Shown: in pieces, positions 23,301 to 41,220 of the stretch
Layout of the letters: every line of letters starts with the position of its first letter
How positions within the stretch are numbered: the first letter of the stretch is position 1
NCBI GenBank assembly: GCA_003344405.1
Contig: NOWV01000157.1
Coordinates: 62,001 to 126,000, forward strand
Origin: Trichoplax sp. H2
Lineage: Eukaryota
DNA: 64,000 bases
Direction: 5' to 3'
Translations under genes and position numbers: made by a program
Notes under the pieces: generated by a model
The model's database searches: none
What the model was told of the DNA's origin: nothing
The model's input: only the letters and a program-made list of their open reading frames with translations

Positions 23301-23773
23301 TTTGTGTTAATCATTTAGATTGCTGACTCATTTTGCGTGTCGATTTTATTTACTACGGACGGTATCATTTAAACTACTACTTTACCATATCATCATTCTG
23401 AGTATTCTGTAATCTATCAGTTTAACTTTCAATTTTTAGCCGGATGAGTTTTTCATTCAATATTCTTTTACAATCTAAGCTAATGTTATTGTTTTAAATA
23501 AGGATTAAATATCACTCTTCAAGGAAAAGAATACCAAATCCAAATCGATTTTTTTATTCATTCGATATAATAGGACAAGGAGGCGGTGGCTGCCATTTTC
23601 GACATAAATATCCGTGGGCGAAAGCTAAAGTTGGACATTTCAGTTGATAAAAACAAATTGAAAGAGAAAGGGTACTTTATAACTATCATCTTGACCTATA
23701 AACAAAAGCTAGTCAAAACGTATCGACTTAGCTTATTAGTAAAAGATTAAAATTGAATCACAATCTCGCCATC

Positions 23774-24517
23774 ATGTCGATTAAATTTCCCAAATCAACA
23801 TCTTATCATACCAAGATGACATCGCCATGTTGTAATGCAGCCGAATATTGCCTAGTTGTTTTAGGATCAGCCGGTGTAGGCAAAACATCGTTGGTATCAC
23901 GATTTTTTTACGATAAATTGAACGATAACTATCAGCCAACTCTACAAGATAGCCATCGTAAAGAAATTATGGTAAACGATTTTACATTAAAATTGCATGT
24001 TATTGATACCACTGGTAAAAATGAATTCCCAGCAATGCGTAAATGGTCTATAATGCATGGTGATGCATTTGCCTTAGTCTATTCTATTGATGATTTAGCA
24101 TCATTTACAATGCTAGAAGTGATATATCAACAAATTTTGGAGGAAAAAAGCGGTAAAGATTATAAAATTTTAATTGTTGGTAATAAAAGCGATTTGGAAG
24201 TAGATCGACAAGTTGCTCAATCATCAGCTAATTTAACTGCAGCAAATTGGGGTTGCGATCATATGGAAATATCAGCTAAAAATGATCAAAATGTTTACAG
24301 TGTCTTTTTTAATATCTTAACACAGATACCGCTACCGTGTCGTATTTCATTAGAGCATTTAAAGCCATCAACATCATCATTGGATAGTAATACAAGAAGG
24401 AAAAAATTCAATAAAGTTAAATCAGTTACTGTCATGGACAGTACAGCCTCAACACGACGAAATCGTATGATGTCAAATAAGCGTAAAATGATCAGTCAAA
24501 GTTGTATCATATCGTAA
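23774..24517 (+). CDS. Ras-family small GTPase of the RASD (Dexras1/Rhes)/DIRAS group; intronless CDS, 247 aa
   Basis: G1 GSAGVGKT, G2 YQPT, G3 DTTG followed by FPAMR, G4 NKSD, G5 SAK, extended basic tail, CAAX CIIS. First ATG at 23774. Confidence 0.93.
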   Translation: MSIKFPKSTSYHTKMTSPCCNAAEYCLVVLGSAGVGKTSLVSRFFYDKLNDNYQPTLQDSHRKEIMVNDFTLKLHVIDTTGKNEFPAMRKWSIMHGDAFALVYSIDDLASFTMLEVIYQQILEEKSGKDYKILIVGNKSDLEVDRQVAQSSANLTAANWGCDHMEISAKNDQNVYSVFFNILTQIPLPCRISLEHLKPSTSSLDSNTRRKKFNKVKSVTVMDSTASTRRNRMMSNKRKMISQSCIIS

Positions 24518-27281: not shown

Positions 27282-27729
27282 TTAGTCGATGTTGATTTCG
27301 TATCCTGCAGGTAGCGTTCCCCATCTTGGGTTTCTAGGGCTAAATTCTGTTAGCATAGAATAGATAACATCATCAGTGAGTTGGACCATAACGAGTTCAA
27401 GTAAATACTCTGTTATAAAAGATTGAGTACCATCTCCTATCAATAAGGTAAACTATTGCTAGCAAATTGGTGGGTAGCTTACGTTTCTCTTTGTATGCAG
27501 TGAGAGCTTCCATATAATCGACCATCTCTTGCCTGCAATTTTTCTTTGCATTGACTCCTTGACGCCTGGTACATTCGCTCACACGCTCTCTTAAGACTCG
27601 GATCTCTTCTCGATCGATCCATCTATCTCTGACATACTGATTACGAGCTCTATACCAAGCTACCGGATCGCTTCTATCGATTTCCTCGATAGTCGGTACT
27701 CTCTCAAATTCTCTCTGAAATTTATCCAT
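27282..27729 (-). CDS. NDUFB10: NADH:ubiquinone oxidoreductase subunit B10, short 103-aa form
   Basis: Coding exons 27729-27483 and 27346-27282; REFERVPTIEE...RDRWIDREEIRVLRERVSECTRRQGVNAKKNC (CX11C) matches the NDUFB10 core. A non-coding first exon ends at 28108 (AAG|GTAAGC). Confidence 0.88.
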
Positions 27730-28139
27730 GCGACTATCCACTAATCGATAGCGGAGATTAATCTTTGGCAGAAAAAATCTAGACATTGGAAATGAAAATG
27801 GATGAACATGAGCTATCTACGTAGCACAATGAAGGCGATGCCTAAAGGCTGGCTGTTTATAATTTTAAGGCAAAATTCACATGATGGATAGTGAATATTG
27901 TGGCTAAGGAAGGAAGAAAATTTGGAACATGCTCAAACTCAACTACGACATCACTGCTAATGCAGGGATGAAAAACATCTTTACTTTATTTTTGTGGCTA
28001 TCTAAAGTTGAATACGGTAGTGTAGATACTTTCGATTTAGATTATAGCTCTCATTCTTAGTAATAGATATCAATTTGGATGAAAATGGAGATCAAGATGG
28101 CGCTTACCTTCCTCCGTTGCGGCAGAGAAACGTTGGACT

Positions 28140-29260
28140 CCTTGTACCGTGCTGTACCGTACAGTACCGTATAAACATAAGGTAGTACTGTACTGTACTG
28201 TGGTATACTGTACAGTGTACAGTACTATATACAGTAGTACAGCACACCATGGAATACTGTACACTGTACAGTACTGTACTGTACAGTACTATCTGGACTC
28301 ACGCGTCTCCTTGTACTGTAGGCTCCAGCCGCTATCTGAGCCGACAGACAGACAGACACTTGGCCACCTTCGAATACAGACAGTCGATTACAGTAGTGAA
28401 TGGACTGATTTTTTGTTCTATATTAGGTAATATTATATATTGTATTGCATTGCCTGTGACTAAACTCCGCTTGGAAGTAGTCACCTTAGATCATCCATGT
28501 CATTCAACTTCATACGAGTGATTTCGAGAAGAGACAAGCAAGATCCATACTGTGTAACGAACTAGTTTTCCCCATTTTTCGGCCTCATCTGGTATGAAAA
28601 GTCCACCCATCCGATGTCTGATTACGATCATTTGAACCACCAGTACGTACAGTACTGTACTGTACAGTACAATACAGATCACTTTTCGCCCTCATCTGGT
28701 ATGAAAGGTCCGTCCATCCGATGCCTGATTACGATCATTCGAACATCAATACAAATCACTTTTCGGCTTTTCGCCCTCATCTGGTATGAAAAGTCCATCC
28801 ATCCGATGCCCGATTACGATCATTCGAACAACTGCCAACAGTACAGTACCGACTGTACCGTACAGTACGATTTTACAATGTACAGTACAGTACTGTACAG
28901 TACAGATCAGACGAGCGCTACAGTATGCAGTACTGTAAGCAAATTAGATTGAATATACTCTACTGTACGCAATTGCAACGTGCAGCTATCACACGCTGAC
29001 AAGGGTCGACAGATTCAAATCCAGCTGGAGCAGCTTTGCACATTCGGTGGCCATTGCATTAAGCGATTGGTAAAGTTTCCACTTGGCTAGAAACAGCATC
29101 ATAACACCTTGTGCATACTCGGCAATACAGTACGTAGCTCTTGTGGCTTGGGGCAATTTCTTTAGGCTAATTATACCCCAAATTATCCAAGAGATTGTCT
29201 TGATTCCAGTACCGTATTTGGAAGAATTATTCATCTTGATACCCTCGTCCATTCAATAGC
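28140..29260. promoter_or_regulatory. Divergent (probably bidirectional) promoter region NDUFB10/MRPS22 with a CAGTA pentamer island
   Basis: Head-to-head genes about 1.1 kb apart; dense TACTGTAC/GTACAGTA at 28140-28320 and 28840-28970. Confidence 0.7.
28576..28830. repeat. Three interspersed copies of a ~62-bp unit
   Basis: TTTTCG(G/C)CCTCATCTGGTATGAAA..TCC..CCATCCGATG..(T/C)GATTACGATCATT(T/C)GAAC at ~28576, 28683 and 28769. Confidence 0.9.
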
Positions 29261-29267
29261 AAGAGTA

Positions 29268-31218
29268 ATGGCCTTCGCTTGGATTTCAAGAGCAAGGAAT
29301 ATTTTATATCGCCGCCTACCTGTACCCATTTCCAAGAATACCAATTATGCTTTATGTTCAAGTACTGATCGCCCTTCCGATGGAAAGCAAAAGGAGAGTC
29401 ATCGAAATACCAAGCGGGCAACCCCAATGGACAAAGATGATGCAGATGTACCTCGATTTAATGATCCCACTGTCCAGCAAATTTTATCGAAAATAACTGG
29501 TGTAGATTTAGTCAAGATTTTTCATAGTAGACCTCAAGAACAACCCAAGTTACCTACTTATAAGCTAATGTCAGATGTAGAGTTTAAAGCGGTGCGTGCA
29601 AGAGGATACAACTTGAATCAAACAAATACAACTTTTAAAATTTTCATTGATAATTTCCTAACTACTTTGGATGACAGTTTACAATGACTAACGTAGCTTC
29701 AATCTTTCAATCATTAGGCGGAAGCAAAAGCAATTCAAGAAGCCAAACAATTATTGGCTATGCCACCTCAGATGGTTCAAAGAGAACGAGGCATTAGCAG
29801 AGTAATCACCATTGATAAGGAGTTTGTAGGCTACGATGAAGATAATGCCAATTACATATTTACTGATATTAGCTTATCTGCAACTGATCGGGTTAGTGGA
29901 TTAGAATTTACCCAAATGATACCATTATACAGTATACATATTTCCGACTGATTTCTACTACTACTACTACTACTACTACTGTAATCTCGACTTGATTGAT
30001 GCATTGCAGCTACCGGCCTGTAGTTCAAATAGGTAATAGCTACGTGCATTATTCTTTCAGGATCGTCGTGTTGTTGTACGGGAACCAAATGGCGCCTTGA
30101 GATATGCTACCTGGGACGAAAGAGATAAAATGAACCAAATTTATTACCCCAAGTTAGGCAGACAGTTGAAAGTGCCTCTTATGTTTCAAGGAAAAAATTT
30201 AGAAGTACTCAATTTATGCTAAAGTTAACATACATACACTAGATCACGCTAGCATGTAATCCATACCATGGTGCTATGGTGGCATTTGATTTGATAGGTG
30301 TAGGTCTTAAGATTGAAAAGATCGTTCAATGTTTTTGAAATAATAATTCTATTTTAGAATAGCTTCAGCCAATTACGTCATGCTGATCTCCTCGATTTAG
30401 CCGTACTTCAGTTTGAGCCTGATTCTTCTATGTATATCCAGGTAAACGCGATTTTTTTATCTTGAAATGGGATTGTAGACCAACTCATTTGTATCGTGAT
30501 CGCCAGTAGCTGTAAATTTTCTCATATGCATTTTAGGTTCATCAAAAAACTTATGAAAATCTAGATGATCATAAAAATTATGACCTACTACGATCTACCC
30601 GTCATTTTGGCGGAATGGCGTATCATCTTGTTAAGAGGAATCGTTTCCATGGGTTACTCTCTGATATGCTTACGCGAAAATTGTATGCACATGTTGAAAT
30701 TGGCATTTTCCAGTGAACAATTTGTGCTTGTTTACTTTTTTTTGACCAGTAGTAATCCTTTCGTAGTAATTGCCTCTTTATGCTATCCTAGTAGCAGGAA
30801 TATTGAACTATCCAATTCTTGCTAATTTATTCTAATTCCTTGATGGTACACAAAATGTAGGATATCGGATGCTTGCGATTTAATAGGCCTATATTGTTTA
30901 TTGCATCCTCAAAGTTCTCTTGCCAGACAGATAAAAGAAGGCAATATGACCAAGTCACAAGCACTAAAGGTTTGTCTTTACATTGGATTAGTTTATGAGC
31001 GATAGCTTGGTTAGCAAGTTGAACTATGCTTCAATGATGATCCATTGCTAACTGTATCGCTCTGTCTTACTTTATTTCCTAATTGATCTAATTAGACTTA
31101 TGTTCAAGCCAATGAAGACCTTGCTAGCCAATATAATATCGATCGATTATTGGATAAAGATGAAGAGTTCGCTAAGGAAGAAAGTTCGATGAAATATAGA
31201 AGTGGCGTCAGAAACTAA
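29268..31218 (+). CDS. MRPS22: Mitochondrial small-subunit ribosomal protein mS22, 7 exons
   Basis: Exons 29268-29591, 29718-29891, 30061-30204, 30358-30441, 30537-30682, 30861-30969, 31096-31218. Motifs VQQILSKITGVDL, YIFTDIS, VVREPNGALRYATWDERD, QFEPD, LRSTRHFGGM; Arg-rich N-terminal presequence. Confidence 0.93.
29955..29980. repeat. (CTA)n microsatellite in MRPS22 intron 2
   Basis: About 8-9 perfect CTA units. Confidence 0.9.
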
Positions 31219-31904
31219 TATTGACGTTGAAAAATTTGTATGCAACTGCTGTATTTCATCTGACATTTATTAATTATTGTAAATACTCATATTATAATGC
31301 AGTATTTTGATTTATAGAAGGTATTATGGACGCATTGATATAGCATTTTATTGATTATGGCATATTGATTGCTTTCAGCTTTTTGTTTTAATTGATGGGA
31401 AAGGTTCTGTTCTCCATTTCCTCTCTCTTTATATATGTTTTATAATATACAGAAGCACATATGTCTATAATATAGTCTATAAGATTGGATATTTTAAATG
31501 GTTTCAATGATAGATATTCATGAAGACCGCTTGAAGGCCAGTAGTGTAGTCATTTACCGGGAAGAATTGTTTCAAATGGAGCACTTTATAGTAATAATAA
31601 TTATATGGAAGAGTTCAAGATGGGAGTAGAAACATCAACAGTAGGACTACGTGGTGACTACAGATTGACTGTACGATAATAAAATTTATTCTACAGTATT
31701 GGTTTAGTGATGTATATGATCATGACATGGTAGTCCATGCCTAATTGTACATAGGAAGACGAGTTGTGAAGAAGCTTGGATTCATCGTCTTGACTCCTCC
31801 GTAGAGGGTTGAATGATTTTGTTGTACAGTATTTACAAATGAAATCATTTTCAATGCGTAATCCATTTTTATTTATCACATCAGATTGATTGCATAGAGT
31901 TTGC

Positions 31905-33470
31905 CAAGTTATAGCTGGGTACGGTAGGATGGTGTAGTTATCGAATCCTATAGTTCACCTAGACTAGTTATCTAATGATAGAGTTAACCTAGACAGTATC
32001 CTTTTGCAATTTCAATCCAAATTATAGCAGGGTTAGGTGGGATGGTCTAATCATCCAGTTAACCTAGACAGTGTCCCTTTGCAATTTCAATCCAAATTAT
32101 AGCTGGGTACGGTAGGATGGTGTAGTTATCGAATCCTACAGTTCACCTAGACTAGTTGTCTAATGATAGAGTTAACCTAGACAGTATCCTTTTGCAGTTT
32201 CAATCCAAATTATAGCAAGGTTAGGTGGGATGGTCTAATCATCCAGAATCCTACAGTTCACCTAGACTAGTTATCTAATGATAGAGTTAACCTAGACAGT
32301 ATCCTTTTGCAGTTTCAATCCAAATTATAGCAAGGTTAGGTGGGATGGTCTAATCATCCAGTTAACCTAGACAGTGTCCCTTTGCAATTTCAATCCAAGT
32401 TATAGCTGGGTACGGTAGGATGGTCTAGTTATCGAATCCTACAGTTCACCTAGACTAGTTGTCTAATGATAGAGTTAACCTAGACAGTATCCTTTTGCAG
32501 TTTCAATCCAAATTATAGCAAGGTTAGGTGGGATGGTCTAATCATCCAGTTAACCTAGACAGTGTCCCTTTGCAATTTCAATCCAAATTATAGCTGGGTA
32601 CGGTAGGATGGTCTAGTTATCGAATCCTACAGTTCACCTAGACTAGTTATCTAATGATAGAGTTAACCTAGACAGTATCCTTTTGCAGTTTCAATCCAAA
32701 TTATAGCAAGGTTAGGTGGGATGGTCTAATCATCCAGTTAACCTAGACAGTGTCCCTTTGCAATTTCAATCCAAATTATAGCTGGGTACGGTAGGATGGT
32801 CTAGTTATCGAATCCTACAGTTCACCTAGACTAGTTATCTAATGATAGAGTTAACCTAGACAGTATCCTTTTGCAGTTTCAATCCAAATTATAGCAAGGT
32901 TAGGTGGGATGGTCTAATCATCCAGTTAACCTAGACAGTGTCCCTTTGCAATTTCAATCCAAATTATAGCTGGGTACGGTAGGATGGTCTAGTTATCGAA
33001 TCCTACAGTTCACCTAGACTAGTTATCTAATGATAGAGTTCACCTAGACAGTATCCTTTTGCAGTTTCAATCCAAATTATAGCAAGGTTAGGTGGGATGG
33101 TCTAATCATCCAGTTAACCTAGACAGTGTCCCTTTGCAATTTCAATCCAAATTATAGCTGGGTACGGTAGGATGGTCTAGTTATCGAATCCTACAGTTCA
33201 CCTAGACTAGTTATCTAATGATAGAGTTAACCTAGACAGTATCCTTTTGCAGTTTCAATCCAAATTATAGCAGGGTTAGGTAGGATGGTCGAGTCATGTA
33301 ATCATACCGTCGAGTTAACCAAGACAGTGTCCTTTTGCCATTTCAATCCAAATTATTCGGGTTAGGCAGGATGGTCTAGTCATCGAATCATACAGTTAAC
33401 CTAGACAGTGTCCCCTTGCAATTGGAATCCAAACTACAGCAGGGTAAGGTAGAGGATGGTCTAGTTATTC
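31905..33470. repeat. 188-bp higher-order tandem satellite (~7 units) with diverged ~80-bp monomers at the right edge
   Basis: GCTGGGTACGG recurs at 31914, 32102, 32405, 32593, 32781, 32969 and 33157 (188-bp spacing, one 303-bp unit with an internal duplication). Each unit comprises two related subunits (~113 + ~75 bp). Confidence 0.97.
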
Positions 33471-33801
33471 AATCATTTAGCTTATGACTAAAGTCATGCG
33501 GGACCTGCGTTGTAAGCAGGAAACGACAGTGGTGCAAGTAAGTCCAGAGCTAGCTGACAGGATGCCAATTTGACACACACAGTGTACAGTCGAAGGATTG
33601 GCGTTGGCATGTGCTGCTTAGCCTATACTGTACAACGATTCCATACTACTGTACTGAACACTCATTGTCCACTCTCCAGTATGTATGAGTCATAGGCATA
33701 CCCACTATAGCACAGCAGGGATTCCACTTTGCCTCCATCTCACCATGTACAGTATGGACAACTAGGGCTGATCGCTGACAGAGTACAAGTTTTACTATGG
33801 C

Positions 33802-33870
33802 TTGACCCTGGTTGGTTTGACCATGGTTGGTTTTACCCTGGTTGGTTTAACCCTGGTTGGTTTTACCCTG
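33802..33870. repeat. 15-bp minisatellite, about 4.6 copies
   Basis: (TT(G/T/A)ACC(C/A)TGGTTGGT)n. Confidence 0.9.
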
Positions 33871-33953
33871 ATTTCACCCTTTGGTGAAGCACGTTACGGT
33901 GTATTGTACTGTATCTTCCAATACCATCTTGCCCGCCTTAAAAATCCCATCGA

Positions 33954-34020
33954 CGATACGATACGGTACGGTACGGTACGATACGGTACGGTACGATACG
34001 GTACGGTACAGCGGTACCGT
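33954..34020. repeat. (CGGTA/CGATA)n pentamer run just upstream of the septin first exon
   Basis: GATACGATACGGTACGGTACGGTACGATACGGTAC... Confidence 0.9.
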
Positions 34021-34198
34021 ATCCACTTGCAGTACTTTCACACCAGCTATACCAATGTGTCGGGCAATCAGTGCAAGCAATTTCGTCGTCAGCTTGAAAT
34101 AGTCAAAGCCAAAAGGAAGGCCAACCCAAGGCTGCATCGAAGCATCTTACTACTTGTAGAGCTTGCTGTAGACATCGACATCGATTGAGGAAATCGCA

Positions 34199-37100
34199 AT
34201 GAGTGAGGTAAGCAACAGATCGACAGGTATCATCCATTCAACCATATTTAAGAATGAAATGGGCTGGGGGTAGTTATGAAATCATGTGTAGACTGCTCTT
34301 GGCTCAATACTGCAACTTGACAATCGATAGCGTCGTCTTGGGTCTACTCGTTATCATCTTGGGATTAATCATACATGGAATGGATCAATTGGCTTGTTAG
34401 GGCTGAGGATGCTTGCTATGCCAGGCGATTCTTCCGCTTATCCATTGCCAAGTTACGACAGTTTGATACACTGTGTTGGTCCATAGATAGCTTGGAGAAG
34501 GCGTCATTGAACCCCATGGCGATAGATCTTTTCCGCATCGATCCACAACGATCGTGACTAGCGTATTTCAGTCGAAAACACCATCAGGACATCATCGATC
34601 ACTAACCTCCAATCAACTCTATGATAGAGAGTTGTTTCTGCACTTTTATAGTTGATAGCTTGTTAATTGCAACATCTCTTTTTAAAGCAAGCAAGAAATG
34701 GCAGATTAAAACTAGACTCAAATACTTGTTCAGTCAAGTTTGCACAATTCAATGTACTGTCTACAAGTCCTTTCAAATTGAAATAATTAATCCAATATTA
34801 GTACGCTAAAATTCGGGCGTTAATGAAGTAGTAGAATACCAACATGATAAGGATGAATACAACGATCTCGCAATGCTATGAAAGCAATCGTTTTCATCAT
34901 TTATTAATAGTATTGAAACTGATAGCAATACATCTGCTTGCAGAATTCAATGTTGTGATCGGTTGCATAGTATCTAGCCCGTAACGATCGGGGGCAGAAT
35001 ACATAAACTGCACGTTAATTAGGACGGCGATAAAAGATATCCGATACGTACAACTGATGGTATGACTATTTATTCAATCAAGTATTAATGCCTCTTTTCT
35101 GGCAACACAATATCGTTCAATCCGCAAAGAGTTCTCTTACTTTGGCTTATTTCTGTGAAAAGATGCCTTGAGTAATCATCACAAGCAAAGCTTCATTATG
35201 AAATTTCTGACTCGCAACTCCATTGAATGAATTGGTGGTAGCCAACTACGAGTATAAATGGACATGATACACATGTACATCAATGATGCGCGTACAGTAA
35301 CATACCATCTTAATGAATTAGCCGTCAAAGCTGCGATCATGGACGACCAATGAGAAAAATTGTCTATAACTGCATACCTTTCCAACGTATACACACTGTT
35401 GATTAATGCTAACGCTTGCCAAATTGATTGGTAGAATCCTTTGTCACTGATTTACAATAAAACAAAAGTCAGAGTTACCGAGGGCTTCTGGTGTTGAAGA
35501 CACTAATAATAATAATTAATTAAATTCCATTAGGACCCTAGTGTATTGAGAAGACGAATTATACCACAAATAGTCTGTAATATCCTAGTGTAGCTCTAAT
35601 TACAGCCTTATCAAGTTTGAACTGCAGCAGTGTAAAAGATGAATTGTATTACATGCATCATGCGACAGAAACTCTTTCGTCTGCTTACCATTTGACTTTG
35701 AGAACGTACAGTACAGTATGCACGTATGTACAATATAAATCTAATCAATTATTTTTGGTTTGCTTATTTAATTTAGTTTCCGGTAGAAAGTATCCTAACA
35801 AACGATCAGATTAAAAGTAAGTATAATATTTAGACATTCTTCTTCATAATTAATACCGCGTATTGCCTGCTACATTAGTATGTTTAATTGATGATATTGT
35901 TGTCGCTTCCTTCAAATACGGACGTAATTCAGATTTTGCAATTCGCAATGCTGGGCTTTTTACTGGCAAAGCTAGATTAGTGTCTATAGTACTGGTAGTA
36001 AACAGAAGGCGAATAGTTTTGTAATACTTTGAACATAAAATGATTAATAATTATAGGATCATTTCTTTGATATTAGCAGTCAAGATGATCGTTCAATTTT
36101 GCAATCATTTCTTATTCACTTACTGAACGTAAATTAGGATACAAAATAGTTTCCTAATGATCCTATTACTATTGCAGCAGTACTTTTTAGAGGAACTTTC
36201 TTTCTGCTGAGATAATTTCTGTCTTTATTATAAGTCATAAATGTTTCGCTAAATGGTCTCAGTAACATCGTAAACGCGATCATGTTGTGCTTTCAATTCC
36301 ATAAGAATACATGAATACCCTGAAATGTATAAACGAAATGTGATATCGACTAGACACTAATTAGTATTCTCCAGGCAATCATATCTTATTGTACATCAAT
36401 TAAATTTAGATCTGCACATTGCCTTCGATAAGCGTGATGAAGGCAAAAAAGGTGCCGTTCCTCCGGAAAAAATTACGGATTTAATCAAGGAAGTTTTTGG
36501 CCCACCTCTAAATGGCACTTTAATTGGTTATGCGAAGGACCTAAGCAAAAACCTTTCTGAAAATGGTCAAGAGATTTTAAAATATTTAGCGCTTGTTTTA
36601 CAACTAAATTATTAAACAGTGTCAAGTTAAGTCAAGCACAGAATCAATAGGAATTAAAATTTACTTCTTCTTTCCATTAGGTGGTTTATCGTATGAAAAT
36701 TTTATAGTGGTTGTGAAACATTTAATGTTTGAGACAACGCGCTGGGGAGTCCTAAAGACGGCACCTGAAAGGCCTATTGGACTGGATAGTATTCAGGATC
36801 AAGTCAAGCAGAAATTGCTTCGTTTTGGATTAACATTCAATATTATGATAGTAGGTCGGTATCTTTTCCTTCTGAATAAATTGTGCAATTTAGATTGACT
36901 GGTATGATCGGATCTTTGTTTCTAGGTTCTTCTGGCTTGGGTAAATCCACTATGATGAACACATTGTTCAAGAGCAAAGTGAATCGATGGATGGCATCAG
37001 ATACTAGTCAAGAGCCAATAATTCCGCCAACTGTAGAAATTAAGACTATTTCTCACGGTAGTTTTTCATAGTATCCATAGCTGTTGATAGGATACTTGAT

Positions 37101-38472
37101 GCTCAGTTGTATAATTCTACTTCTTAATAGTAATTGAAGAGAAGAACATTCGTCTAAAACTAAGCATAACGGATACTCCAGGTTTTGGAGATCACGTTAA
37201 CAATGTTAAATGGTAAGACATCTATATAGGCTTTTAAAGTAATTTACAGAAGTCTTTATCACTTAATAGTAATCTATTTACGAACTTTACGTCCATAGCT
37301 GGGAGCCGATTATAAAGTACATTAATGATCAGTATCAGCATTACCTAAGTGAAGAGAGACGTATTGAACGTAAACCTCGAATTCCAGACACAAGAATTCA
37401 CTGTGTAATCTATTTTATTGCTCCAACTGGACATAGGTATACAATATTACGTTGTAAGCGTAGAACATAGTTGAGATACAACAATAAATAATCTGACAGC
37501 AATATTTGCTATGTACCAAAATTTCAGCCTTAGAGCTATTGATGTTGAATGTTTAAAGCGATTGGTAAAAGTTGTAAACGTGATTCCAGTTATCGCTAAA
37601 GCCGATAGCTTGACCTTGGAAGAAAGACAGGCGTTTAAAAATAGGGTTTGTATCACTATGTGCAATCATGAAGAAGTTGGTAAAAAGTCTCATCCAGTGT
37701 AGAGTACAAATCGGATAACCTATGCTGGTATTATCATCTAATATAGATTCGTAATGACTTTGAGAGAAATGGCATTTCTAAACTGTATCCAATGCTTCAT
37801 AAAGGCCTTGAAGAAGATGAATTCCAGAAAAATAAGGCCATTAAGGTATAATTTTGCTAAATTCAGTGTTTAATCAAGTCAATATGGAAGGATTTTCATG
37901 TTACTTTTTTCTTCGTTAGTTGGAATCCAATTTGCGTTTGCATTGTAATCATTCTTTTTTATACCATAGAATCAACTACCATTTGCTGTGGTTGGTAGTG
38001 ATCAATTTATGTCCATTAAAGGAACACCAGTCTTAGCTAGGAAAACTAGATGGGGCACTATTGAAGGTAACCAATGTCATCAGTTACTGGTATGGATTAA
38101 CTATAGAGGATTAATGAGATCTGATTCGAGTGCTTTTGGTTCATTTCTCTTACAGTTGAAAATCCAAGTCACAATGAATTTCCTCAATTTCGTGATATGC
38201 TTCTCAGGTATTGCTAACGTATTATAATGTCAATATTTGAGGATAGCGCTCTACTATTTCCATTACAATCTACTGATCAAACGTTATTTTAAGGCGTAGT
38301 GGGATGGCAAAATTGTCATCATTTACTTACTAATTATAACTACTATTAATAAAAACTTTTGGTTTATTTTGATAGGACTCACTTACATGATTTGATAGAT
38401 ACAACTGCTGAAGTTTACTATGAGCATTATCGTCGCAATCAACTTCAACTTGTGCAAGACGGTGATTCCTAG
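34199..38472 (+). CDS. Septin of the SEPT3/9/12 group (no C-terminal coiled coil) with an N-terminal EF-hand-like extension, 11 exons
   Basis: Exons 34199-34226, 36410-36565, 36681-36854, 36926-37057, 37131-37212, 37299-37436, 37528-37645, 37747-37845, 37970-38067, 38156-38207, 38376-38472. Motifs FNIMIVGSSGLGKST, DTPGFGD, IPDTRIHC, AKAD, PFAVVGS, RWGTIE, YYEHYRR. The septin core is certain; the first two exons are inferred from phase continuity. Confidence 0.93.
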
Positions 38473-39753
38473 ATCTTGCTTATTTTTATATGAAATACAT
38501 TTATAAATTATCTAAGATTAATTCTCTTCCTAGTTTTTGTTTGTTTTTACTAAGGCTGTTAATATAAGCAAGGGTATAGCAGCCCTATAGACCTTTTGCT
38601 ATCATTATCAGAAATTATAACAAAATAATTTGCATTTTTGAAATGTGGTGTACGTTATAACCCAAACTACCGTAAATTGTTTATAATGGTACAGTAGTAT
38701 GATGTGAGTCAATTGATGTTGGGGTCTCACGAAGTAGTGTACGTATATAACATAACATTGTCCTTGATGACTTTTACACTGTATTTTTTCCTAGTTGAAT
38801 CAGTAAGTACAGTATTATGAATTTAGTAATGAAAGTCACAAGTGCAGCTCTATGTAGCTATCGTAGTTAGTAAAAATGTGTATGACTATTTTTAATTATA
38901 ACATGATTGATATTACTGCAGCGCTTACTCGCGACTATAAGTTTCTTAACCAATTAAAATGTATATTATAATTATTTGACGAGAAGTTATTTTGATTACG
39001 TAAGCAGACTTTTATAATGATACATTCATTACTGGTGATTGTCCTCTTTTGTTTAGGTATTTCCATACTTTTATGCAAACTAACTGTGGAAGTGTTAACT
39101 TCCCATTCGTTCAGATAAAACACGTACATAAGTCAAATAATTTGCTTTGCGATTAATAGTTGAAATGTATCAAAATTTCAATCGCTGTTGCTAATGCAGA
39201 ATAAAGCACTGGTGTAGGGCTTCATCATTTTGAAATAGGTATATACTGTGCTATAAGAGAGTAAGTTGATACTCTTTCTGGTAGTAGCAATGGTAAAGTT
39301 AGTAACCACAAGAGTAAGCCAATTTTATCATTCCATTCCTAGTAATGAAATATTTGTGAATTATTCAAGATATGTACAAACTTTACAATAACATCTTGAG
39401 GAATCTACAATGAATTTAAAGAGAATTTACGAAATGCACCCAAGAAACAATTTACAGTAAATGCTTTTCGGTAGAGTATTGCATAACACCCCTCAAGGCA
39501 CGTGTAGGAAAATTGCATACAAGGATTATGCATTTGCGTACACTGTATCACCTGTAACTACTGGAGCGATCGTTATGAAGCTCGTTACGGGTTTCGCAAT
39601 TACAAATTTAGGCATATTTCATTAATTCGATTTTAATGGGATTATGGACAGGAGTTGCGTACACTAGACAGAACAGTGGACACATTACATTACCGTTATG
39701 CATTTATTATCGAGCGTTCGTTACCCAAATAGAATGCACGTACTTTGGCTAAG

Positions 39754-40783
39754 GTAAACAAATAACAAATCAATAATATTTGACATTTCGTAAATAAGAT
39801 TAACCAAGCTGGTTGTGTTGATGCAAAACATTGACGTATCATTTTTAGACTTTACACTTAGTGAATGATCTACTGCATTATACTTTGCTTCACATTAAAA
39901 GATTATATTTTATAAGTGCCAGTTTATGGAGCGATACTGTATACTAACTGAACCATTCGTTTTTCCTCAGTACAGTAGTGTTAATTTGGAGATGATTCTG
40001 ATTTAATTTACTACTATACTGTATTTGTTTACTGTTTACGCTGTTTAATTAGCGCACAATGAGCATTACGGTTTGCACATTGCTGCAGGCCTACAGTGAG
40101 GCTTAACAGTTACCAGTAGTATTGCAAATCACAGTGCACAATACAGTACTGTATAACCAGTATCTGCCTTGGCCTGTACTGCAGTACTGTATTGTATTGC
40201 CATCTTGTTGAACTTGTATTCAGTAGTACATCGATGGATTTTATTTTTGTTCAATTATCAGCTCTCAGCTGTTACTGCTTTACTAAACGGCCAGTTCAGT
40301 GCTACTGTTACCTTAACAAGTTGAAAACCTGTTCATGTAATAGATAATTAGAATTATAGATGCACCGTATGGTTGGTCAGTCTGCTTTCACAGCATACTC
40401 GTATAACAACACCATCACCACCATTGGTATTGCAGTGTGACCATGTATTTAAGACGTTATTAAGACGATGATCTACAGTGATACAGTGCTACACTGTAAT
40501 GCAGTTTGGCACGGTAGAATACTGTAGATGACCAGAAAATTCGATATTTATGGACGGTGAATTTTCAAGATTAATCTAGTACAATCTACCGTAGACCCTG
40601 GTAGGATAAGAAGGTTTAAACTTGTAAACAAGGACTTGTAATGATTAATGACATCTACTAGCTCGTGGCATCGTGGGGCTAATTTCTTTTTAGGAACCAT
40701 ACTGGGTTAGCCCTCTTAATTACAAGTCCCGACTAGTCCCTGCTTAAACTACAGTACAGTATACAGCACAACGGTTGTAAACA
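39754..40783. promoter_or_regulatory. Cluster of forkhead sites (GTAAACA/TGTTTAC) upstream of FoxK
   Basis: Exact sites at 39754, 40026, 40033, 40624 and 40777. Confidence 0.5.
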
Positions 40784-40806
40784 GATTGAATAAACTGAAC
40801 CATTTT

Positions 40807-40845
40807 AATATTATTATTATTATTATTATAATATTATTATATTAT
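40807..40845. repeat. Imperfect (ATT)n microsatellite
   Basis: Visible AT-only run of ATT units. Confidence 0.8.
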
Positions 40846-40909
40846 TTTTTGATTATATATTTTTTTATATTTATCGTACAGTATTTGTTTTCTTTCTTTT
40901 GTTTAGATC

Positions 40910-41220
40910 AGCCCAGTACAGTACTGTACTGTACAGTACACAATACAATATTGTACTAGACCGTCCAGTGTACATTGTACTGTAACTTACAGTACTTTTT
41001 TGATTCTTTTACAAAACATTGCTGAAACTACAGTACTGTATTGTACAGTACAGCGTACTGTAGCCAACTGCTGCTGGTGCACTCCTGATGCTCTGTCAAT
41101 GCCGAGCCAAGTTTCAATTAATATGAAGTACTGTACAGTACTTACCACTCGCACAGACTGTAAAACGTACTGTAAACTTGTACTGTAAAAGTATACAGTA
41201 CACTGTACTGTACATACAAC
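40910..41220. repeat. CAGTA/TACTG pentamer island directly upstream of FoxK
   Basis: Dense GTACAGTACTGTACTGTAC copies ending ~150 bp before the ATG. Confidence 0.85.

Follow-up and report, generated by a model that had tools for sequence, protein, structure and literature searches.

A stretch of 64,000 nucleotides from Trichoplax sp. H2 (contig NOWV01000157.1 of the GenBank assembly GCA_003344405.1, positions 62,001 to 126,000 of the forward strand; in the following called the window, whose own positions are used throughout) contains a septin gene that raises an unexpected question: does the encoded protein start with a folded EF-hand domain, and if so, is this a peculiarity of one placozoan? 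A preliminary description, made from the letters of the window, had proposed that the exons in front of the septin G domain encode a degenerate EF-hand pair spliced in frame to the septin. The picture which best explains the observations as a whole, and which we consider fairly probable, is that of a SEPT3/9/12-type septin of 12 exons and 397 residues with an EF-hand pair of about 85 residues, which would be an ancestral and calcium-independent adaptor that was lost in vertebrates. The EF-hand septin is real and ancient, has apparently not been described, and is not an invention of Trichoplax.

Whether the upstream exons belong to the septin is answered by RNA contigs of four public runs, which were placed on positions 34012-39500; three of these runs (X5, X8 and X12) each belong to a different study. 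The contigs define one gene on the forward strand, spanning 34057 to about 39224. All introns of the gene model are given by 11 joints, each of them GT..AG and identical in X5, X8 and X12 (one contig per run). The contigs of X4 cover the introns and contain no joint. If the 12 exons are joined by their coordinates, an open frame of 1194 nt encoding 397 residues is obtained. The parts of the gene are the following.

34057-34198, forward strand: 5' untranslated region (UTR), minimum extent, from a contig of X8 (record 19, 2093 nt) covering 34057-34205.
34199-34207, forward strand: coding part of exon 1, the ATG and two codons (MSE), ending at the donor GAG/GTAAGC at 34207/34208.
35777-35816, forward strand: exon 2, 40 nt, with which EF-hand helix 1 begins; it codes for FPVESILTNDQIK and for base 1 of the Asn17 codon; joints in three runs.
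36410-36565, forward strand: exon 3, residues 18-68; RNA joints, and the translation aligns to orthologues.
36681-36854, forward strand: exon 4; RNA joints, and a 100% match to the deposited protein TRIADDRAFT_21019.
36926-37057, 37131-37212, 37299-37436 and 37528-37645, forward strand: exons 5-8, septin G domain; junctions in X5, X8 and X12.
37747-37845, 37970-38066, 38156-38207 and 38376-38472, forward strand: exons 9-12, septin G domain, stop included; junctions in X5, X8 and X12.
38473-39224, forward strand: 3' UTR; record 19 of X8 reaches 39224 and record 5 of X12 reaches 39216.

Since the X8 contig runs from 34057 to 39224, the 5' UTR measures 142 nt or more, the 3' UTR some 750 nt; transcription starts at 34057 or upstream. 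The start codon at 34199, which had been proposed earlier, is supported by an in-frame stop upstream of it (34169-34171) and by the X8 contig extending back to 34057. The first exon itself had been drawn too long, as 34199-34226: the real donor is at 34207, and the 40-nt exon at 35777-35816 had been overlooked. Consequently the junction 34226/36410 was found in no run. Used instead are the junctions 34207/35777, present in X5, X8 and X12 as the contig joint 34205->35775 (cut +2), and 35816/36410, which is GT..AG in the same three runs. Because of the mis-cut first exon and the overlooked exon 2, residues 4-10 of the earlier translation were wrong, while everything from LHIAF onward, with which the translation of exon 3 opens, stands. 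In the corrected N-terminus the first helix starts with LTxxQ, as in calmodulin and in the orthologues, and the correction therefore strengthens the EF-hand reading. The central claim, namely that the exon at 36410-36565 is real and in frame with the septin exon at 36681, is borne out by the contigs from the three studies (junction 36565/36681, GT..AG, one contig each in X5, X8 and X12). Exon 3 encodes the end of helix 1, loop 1 (D25-K36), helices 2 and 3 and the first half of loop 2. The rest of loop 2 and EF-hand helix 4 (to about residue 85) are encoded by exon 4, followed by a linker, the alpha0/polybasic stretch and the first strand of the G domain. The linker, with the consensus TTxWGxLKT, is T87-T95 in Trichoplax and lies between EF-hand helix 4 and alpha0.

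Two irregularities were seen among the contigs at this gene. In X8 and X12 one contig exits the locus in intron 6 at 37258 and another enters the 3' UTR at 38608; each has 255 letters unlike the window, with the same consensus in both runs, and these contigs may stem from a chimeric or alternative transcript, or else from an allele with an insertion. In X4, a 13-base insertion in intron 4 at 36861 and scattered single-base differences over the introns distinguish the contigs from the window, which is probably strain or allele variation.

The septin nature of the protein is evident from the deposited counterpart. The exon 4 translation finds one protein at 100% identity, TRIADDRAFT_21019 (P0001) of Trichoplax adhaerens, with 314 amino acids and the Pfam family Septin (PF00735) on record, and the motifs GSSGLGKST (G1), DTPGFG (G3) and AKAD (G4) are present. 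A C-terminal coiled coil is absent; in alignments with other septins the matched part extends to residues 306-311 of 314, and the protein stops just past it. Relatives among the best 120 matches are named septin-3-like, septin-9 and septin-12 by their sources, with Cdc10 lower down. Going by the names of the closest matches and by the missing coiled coil, the protein is assigned to the SEPT3/9/12 subgroup (Group 1A).

The first residues of TRIADDRAFT_21019, MFETT, correspond to the RNA-supported protein from Met84 (codon 36725-36727, within exon 4), and over residues 84-397 our translation is identical to the deposited one. Against the longer proteins in a collection of 5.8 billion, the exon 3 translation gave 14 word candidates, none at E<=1; the deposited models are therefore without the upstream exons. 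The reference model should be corrected accordingly, as it lacks the first 83 residues and three exons. One could take the reference at its word and regard the upstream exons as 5' UTR, with the protein starting at Met84 and a frame that is open by chance, the more so as predicted short isoforms in other animals begin at the equivalent Met. We find this hardly credible, because the frame is open from the first ATG past the in-frame stop and through three splice joints, and because the 85 residues it encodes are homologous to a domain conserved over at least seven animal phyla. Since the reference and the predicted short isoforms of other animals start at the equivalent of Met84, long and short forms may both exist; the RNA contigs show only the long one. 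Five models labelled "isoform X2" or "septin-9-like" (P0035, P0015, P0016, P0041 and P0014, from sea urchin, hemichordate, spider and crinoid) start at a Met in EF-hand helix 4 that is equivalent to Trichoplax Met84, and the gene may therefore quite generally have alternative forms, one long and one short.

What, then, are the 83 added residues? A hidden Markov model (HMM) of the domain was built from 19 orthologue N-termini, Trichoplax excluded. It matches the Trichoplax N-terminus over residues 7-85 with 49.4 bits, the top of 1000 shuffles being 9.8 bits. For a search of PDB, a profile was made from the 19 orthologue N-termini plus a row for Trichoplax exon 3. It retrieved 594 distinct sequences at E<=1, the top one with an E-value of 1.1e-20 and calmodulin with about 5e-15, and the best 60 of the 594 are all calmodulin, centrin/caltractin, CaBP1, radial spoke protein 7 (RSP7) or a calmodulin fusion. 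Profile positions 10-85 align to calmodulin residues 5-78, the N-lobe; taken by itself, this lobe has an i-Evalue of 3.2e-5. Pfam recognizes EF-hand_7 in 13 of 36 orthologues at E<=0.01 and EF-hand_1 in six. The AlphaFold2 model of residues 1-90 of the Oscarella orthologue P0063 (mean predicted local distance difference test, pLDDT, 86.9; predicted template modelling score, pTM, 0.75) consists of a short N-terminal helix and four more helices, with short strand contacts between the two loops. Its listed Foldseek matches are, by their titles, all EF-hand proteins or EF-hand-based sensors, with TMq values of 0.6-0.71. Homology of the family profile together with the predicted fold of an orthologue thus agrees with the EF-hand pair proposed earlier, and through its strong homology to the family the stretch of about residues 7-85 in Trichoplax is assigned as such a pair.

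The preliminary description had gone one step further and suggested a myosin-light-chain-like module that docks septin filaments onto the IQ motifs of myosins. The fold is indeed of the calmodulin/light-chain lobe type, and complexes of apo-calmodulin with IQ motifs are among the fold matches (3wfn for Oscarella; 5i0i, 8zlx and 4byf for the choanoflagellate Choanoeca flexa, to which we return below). Against this stands that the best 60 profile matches hold no light chain, the top ones being calmodulin and centrin, and that a single lobe as a rule binds IQ motifs weakly. We therefore regard specific docking onto myosin as quite unlikely; IQ motifs and myosin are, as a matter of speculation, one possible partner class which the data do not single out.

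The spread of the domain was surveyed in the best 120 septin matches with a cut-off of 50 bits, the 19 sequences used to build the HMM being counted among the carriers. The domain is present in 53 of the 120, and in all 53 it ends about 40 residues ahead of the P-loop. According to the source names, the carriers are demosponges, homoscleromorph sponges, glass sponges and one ctenophore; anthozoans, hydrozoans and a scyphozoan among the cnidarians; spiders and a tick among the chelicerates; sea urchins, a brittle star, a sea star and a sea cucumber among the echinoderms; and, in addition, a hemichordate and amphioxus. Every carrier (53/53) also has the W/Y-G linker with the consensus TTxWGxLKT, and in an alignment of 36 sequences W94 and G95 are invariant. 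In 17 of the 120 models the linker is kept and the domain is missing; they are truncated models or short isoforms that start at the equivalent of Trichoplax Met84, except that the pattern in one fish protein is probably a chance match. The remaining 50, mainly vertebrate SEPT9/3/12, have neither domain nor linker, and seven of them, including two tunicate models starting with MKT, have the P-loop at residues 33-39 and are too short to judge. Among the listed vertebrate septins the domain HMM finds no match, and the Trp-Gly linker is missing there as well. A search of representative sequences with P0001 is dominated by long vertebrate septins, and the domain HMM matches two of 149 further proteins (E<=1e-3). 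A precomputed label for PF13499 is found on three of the 120.

These numbers change the earlier view of the fusion in two respects. Its implied rarity cannot be upheld, as a homologous domain sits in 53 of the 120 best matches from sponges to amphioxus. Likewise the statement that septins of the SEPT3/9 group normally have disordered N-termini is, among the matches found here, true of the vertebrate ones only. Whether the fusion was already annotated as common, a point on which the preliminary description had let its claim depend, has a divided answer: gene models carrying it are common, while they are almost never labelled and no paper on them was found. Judged by these protein models, the fusion is not a placozoan oddity but an old and overlooked feature, which most animal groups outside the vertebrates have on the corresponding septin.

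If the domain is an EF-hand pair, does it bind calcium? The loops were mapped through the profile alignment to calmodulin, which gives DEGKKGAVPPEK as loop 1 and NLSENGGLSYEN as loop 2 of Trichoplax. They were compared with a canonical loop of the PROSITE type (12 residues with D1, D/N/S at positions 3 and 5, G6 and a bidentate E12). Loop 1 has Gly3, Lys5, Pro9 and Lys12, loop 2 is without acidic ligands and has Asn at position 12; one of four ligand positions agrees in loop 1 and two of four in loop 2. The earlier remark that both loops are short of the canonical acidic ligands is hence correct, and a domain that does not bind calcium is supported for Trichoplax. Pro-Pro at positions 9-10 of loop 1 is found in Trichoplax and in two homoscleromorph sponges. 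In none of the 53 orthologues is loop 1 or loop 2 strictly canonical, nor does any of them have Glu at position 12 of loop 1. A relaxed definition is matched by one of the 53, in loop 1 of the glass sponge Vazella (P0046), which with DPDENGVIELED is nearly canonical. As neither loop is canonical in Trichoplax or in any of the 53 orthologues, calcium sensing by this domain appears unlikely.

Several points weigh against the picture drawn so far. In Trichoplax itself, Pfam finds no family at E<=10 in the single exon pieces and the two surrounding open frames, and exon 3 alone has 14 chance-level matches among the PDB sequences (E 1.4-1.6), none of them an EF-hand. Because the single-sequence methods give nothing, the EF-hand assignment of the Trichoplax protein is transitive by way of the family profile: similarity to EF-hand proteins is seen at the level of the family only, which Trichoplax joins with the bit score given above. 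The fold models are those of orthologues (Oscarella and C. flexa) and not of the spliced Trichoplax protein. Foldseek E-values are weak, with 0.046 as the best and none <=0.001, and the Pfam scores of the orthologues lie under the curated cut-off with the sole exception of EF-hand_1 in the glass sponge protein P0046 (28.1 versus 25.4 bits). The RNA evidence consists throughout of assembled contigs, in which rare variants are dropped, so that a short isoform is possible. Finally, loop 1 has kept a set of potential ligands across the family, with Asp1 in 52, Glu/Asp3 in 47, Gly6 in 52 and Asp/Glu9 in 49 of the 53 orthologues, and weak or unusual metal binding in some other species is therefore possible.

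This last point leads to the alternative of a genuine calcium or magnesium sensor, in which metal bound through a non-canonical loop 1 would make assembly or partner binding calcium-dependent. Besides the retained ligands, the glass sponge protein speaks for it, with its near-canonical loop 1 and its EF-hand_1 score above the Pfam cut-off. The substitutions in both Trichoplax loops, the lack of Glu12 in loop 1 in 53 of 53 orthologues and the lack of a single strictly canonical loop among them make such a sensor improbable in our view.

The architecture is a degenerate EF-hand lobe, then the Trp-Gly linker, the alpha0/polybasic stretch and the G domain. Subunits of the SEPT3/9/12 type sit at the centre of septin octamers and are paired via the NC interface. 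The EF-hand lobe could act, independently of calcium, as a fixed adaptor that binds a helix or has a structural role, placed by the NC interface at the N-terminal end of the subunit. It would then couple septin filaments to a partner, which we slightly favour, or else clamp its own linker and alpha0 and in this way gate assembly or membrane contact.

The second of these possibilities deserves attention as an explanation in its own right. In a cis-acting clamp the lobe would bind its own TTxWGxLKT or alpha0, in cis or across the NC interface and without an outside partner, and would thereby control the exposure of the polybasic region and end-to-end assembly. Lobe and linker co-occur across phyla and are both missing from the vertebrate matches: all 53 domain carriers possess the Trp-Gly linker with its invariant Trp and Gly, and the domainless vertebrate matches do not. 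Moreover, amphipathic segments centred on a Trp are typical targets of calmodulin lobes. On the other hand, the linker is kept without the domain in the 17 short or truncated models mentioned above, and for this reason it is able to exist alone. A complex prediction of Oscarella residues 1-90 with residues 91-400 (score 0.00, alignment not used) argues neither for nor against docking. We rate a clamp working entirely without a partner as rather doubtful.

How old is the domain? Salpingoeca infusionum (P0156) and Choanoeca flexa (P0157) have an N-terminal region of similar length and a TTxW/YGxL linker before the G domain. Both can be aligned over the full length of the domain HMM, but their scores of 9.5 and 12.0 bits do not stand out from the best shuffle, and no Pfam EF-hand match was found in either protein. 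The model of the C. flexa N-terminus has four helices and two short strands (pLDDT 79.9, pTM 0.64), and calmodulin, centrin and S100 proteins rank first among its fold matches (best E 0.042); 11 of the 15 rows in the underlying alignment are from animals, which possibly pulls the model toward the EF-hand fold. The domain is possibly present in choanoflagellates, and an origin before the animals is likely. The fungal Cdc10-type proteins examined have neither domain nor linker. One entry, P0284, belongs to a cluster of Candida Cdc10 (at least 90% identical) and bears the source label "MAG: septin family protein [Asgard group archaeon]"; it is most likely a yeast contamination of the metagenome bin. 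According to this scenario the domain would have been present on this septin already in the last common ancestor of animals, perhaps of animals and choanoflagellates. In vertebrates, domain and Trp-Gly linker would have been lost together, with a long low-complexity N-terminus in their place.

The N-terminus of vertebrate SEPT9 binds actin and microtubules. Combining this with the above, we tentatively put forward as possible that the ancestral animal (probably already choanoflagellate) SEPT9-type septin had a folded, calcium-blind calmodulin-like lobe and an invariant Trp-Gly linker, which together served the NC interface in the middle of the septin rod as a "light chain" of its own and were replaced in vertebrates. 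With two lobes per octamer, a clamp would arise which gates membrane or end-to-end contacts, or which grips the helix of a partner, and vertebrates would have swapped this module for the disordered SEPT9 N-terminus binding actin and microtubules. If this is true, the prevailing notion of unstructured and variable septin N-terminal extensions would apply to vertebrates and fungi only.

Among the papers listed by a literature search and judged by title and the start of the abstract, none describes an EF-hand septin (supplements and subscription journals lay outside the search), and the term "EF-hand" occurs zero times in seven septin-evolution papers among them. The passages considered from PMC6323724, PMC13081904 and 10.1101/2024.03.25.586683 speak of variable N-terminal extensions only and leave EF-hands unmentioned. 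Plainly, the architecture is contained in many deposited gene models, few of which have a Pfam label, and it could be discovered by routine domain scans. To our knowledge, Drosophila and C. elegans are without the SEPT3/9/12 group of septins, which would explain why the domain has gone unstudied. The N-terminal extension of SEPT3/9/12-type septins emerges as a folded and conserved EF-hand pair in most animal phyla and not as a disordered tail. A defined module with a conserved Trp-Gly linker is testable in Nematostella, Hydra, sea urchin and choanoflagellates, and the rise of the vertebrate SEPT9 N-terminus can be placed in an evolutionary context.

Three genes were noted on the upstream side of the septin gene.

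23732-24517, forward strand: Ras-family GTPase, a single open frame of 261 amino acids (PF00071, E 7.7e-42).
27397-27816, reverse strand: NDUFB10 homologue (E 1.3e-17).
29166-29951, forward strand: gene of the mitochondrial ribosomal protein S22 (MRP-S22), at least two exons, upstream of the septin (E 1e-11 and 9e-11).

A large tandem array at 31904-33406 takes up the greater part of the interval from the MRP-S22 gene to the septin promoter; its period is about 188 bp (sub-periods 75 and 30), and it has about 6.6 copies with a match of 95%. Shortly upstream of the septin transcript start, a 15-bp repeat (4.9 copies, 33798-33870) and (ACGGT)x11 (33953-34009) follow. Stretches rich in TACTGTAC-like words lie beside neighbouring genes at 28050-28950 and 40100-41220. 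The 15-bp repeat, the (ACGGT)n and the TACTGTAC-like stretches look like intergenic or promoter-associated simple sequence.

Compared with known proteins, the Trichoplax septin is closest to invertebrate models named "neuronal-specific septin-3-like" or "septin-9-like", such as those of Oscarella lobularis (P0063), Corticium candelabrum (P0070), Nematostella vectensis (P0007), Hydra vulgaris (P0030), Bolinopsis microptera (P0054) and Branchiostoma (P0074). Their septin core is 51-59% identical to that of Trichoplax, and they share with it the N-terminal domain of about 80 amino acids, the TTxWGxLKT linker, the G domain and the absence of a coiled coil. Trichoplax differs in that its reference model is without the domain and in that its loops are among the most degenerate; the G-x-VPP of its loop 1 is shared with the two homoscleromorph sponges. 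The choanoflagellate Sept9-type septins are like the animal ones in N-terminal length, in the linker and, in the case of C. flexa, in a modelled EF-hand pair, whereas their sequence similarity to the domain is marginal.

Vertebrate SEPT9, SEPT3 and SEPT12 (Group 1A) have an orthologous G domain, 52-57% identical, and like Trichoplax no C-terminal coiled coil. The N-termini of those found here are unlike that of Trichoplax: long, of low complexity, without a match to the domain HMM and without the Trp-Gly linker. The calmodulin and centrin lobes (EF-hand_7, PF13499), in turn, have the same four-helix fold with strand contacts from loop to loop as predicted for the septin domain. In contrast to calmodulin, the septin domain is a single lobe fused to a GTPase, shows the canonical DxDxDG...E ligands in neither loop and, according to the profile alignment, has one extra residue in loop 2.

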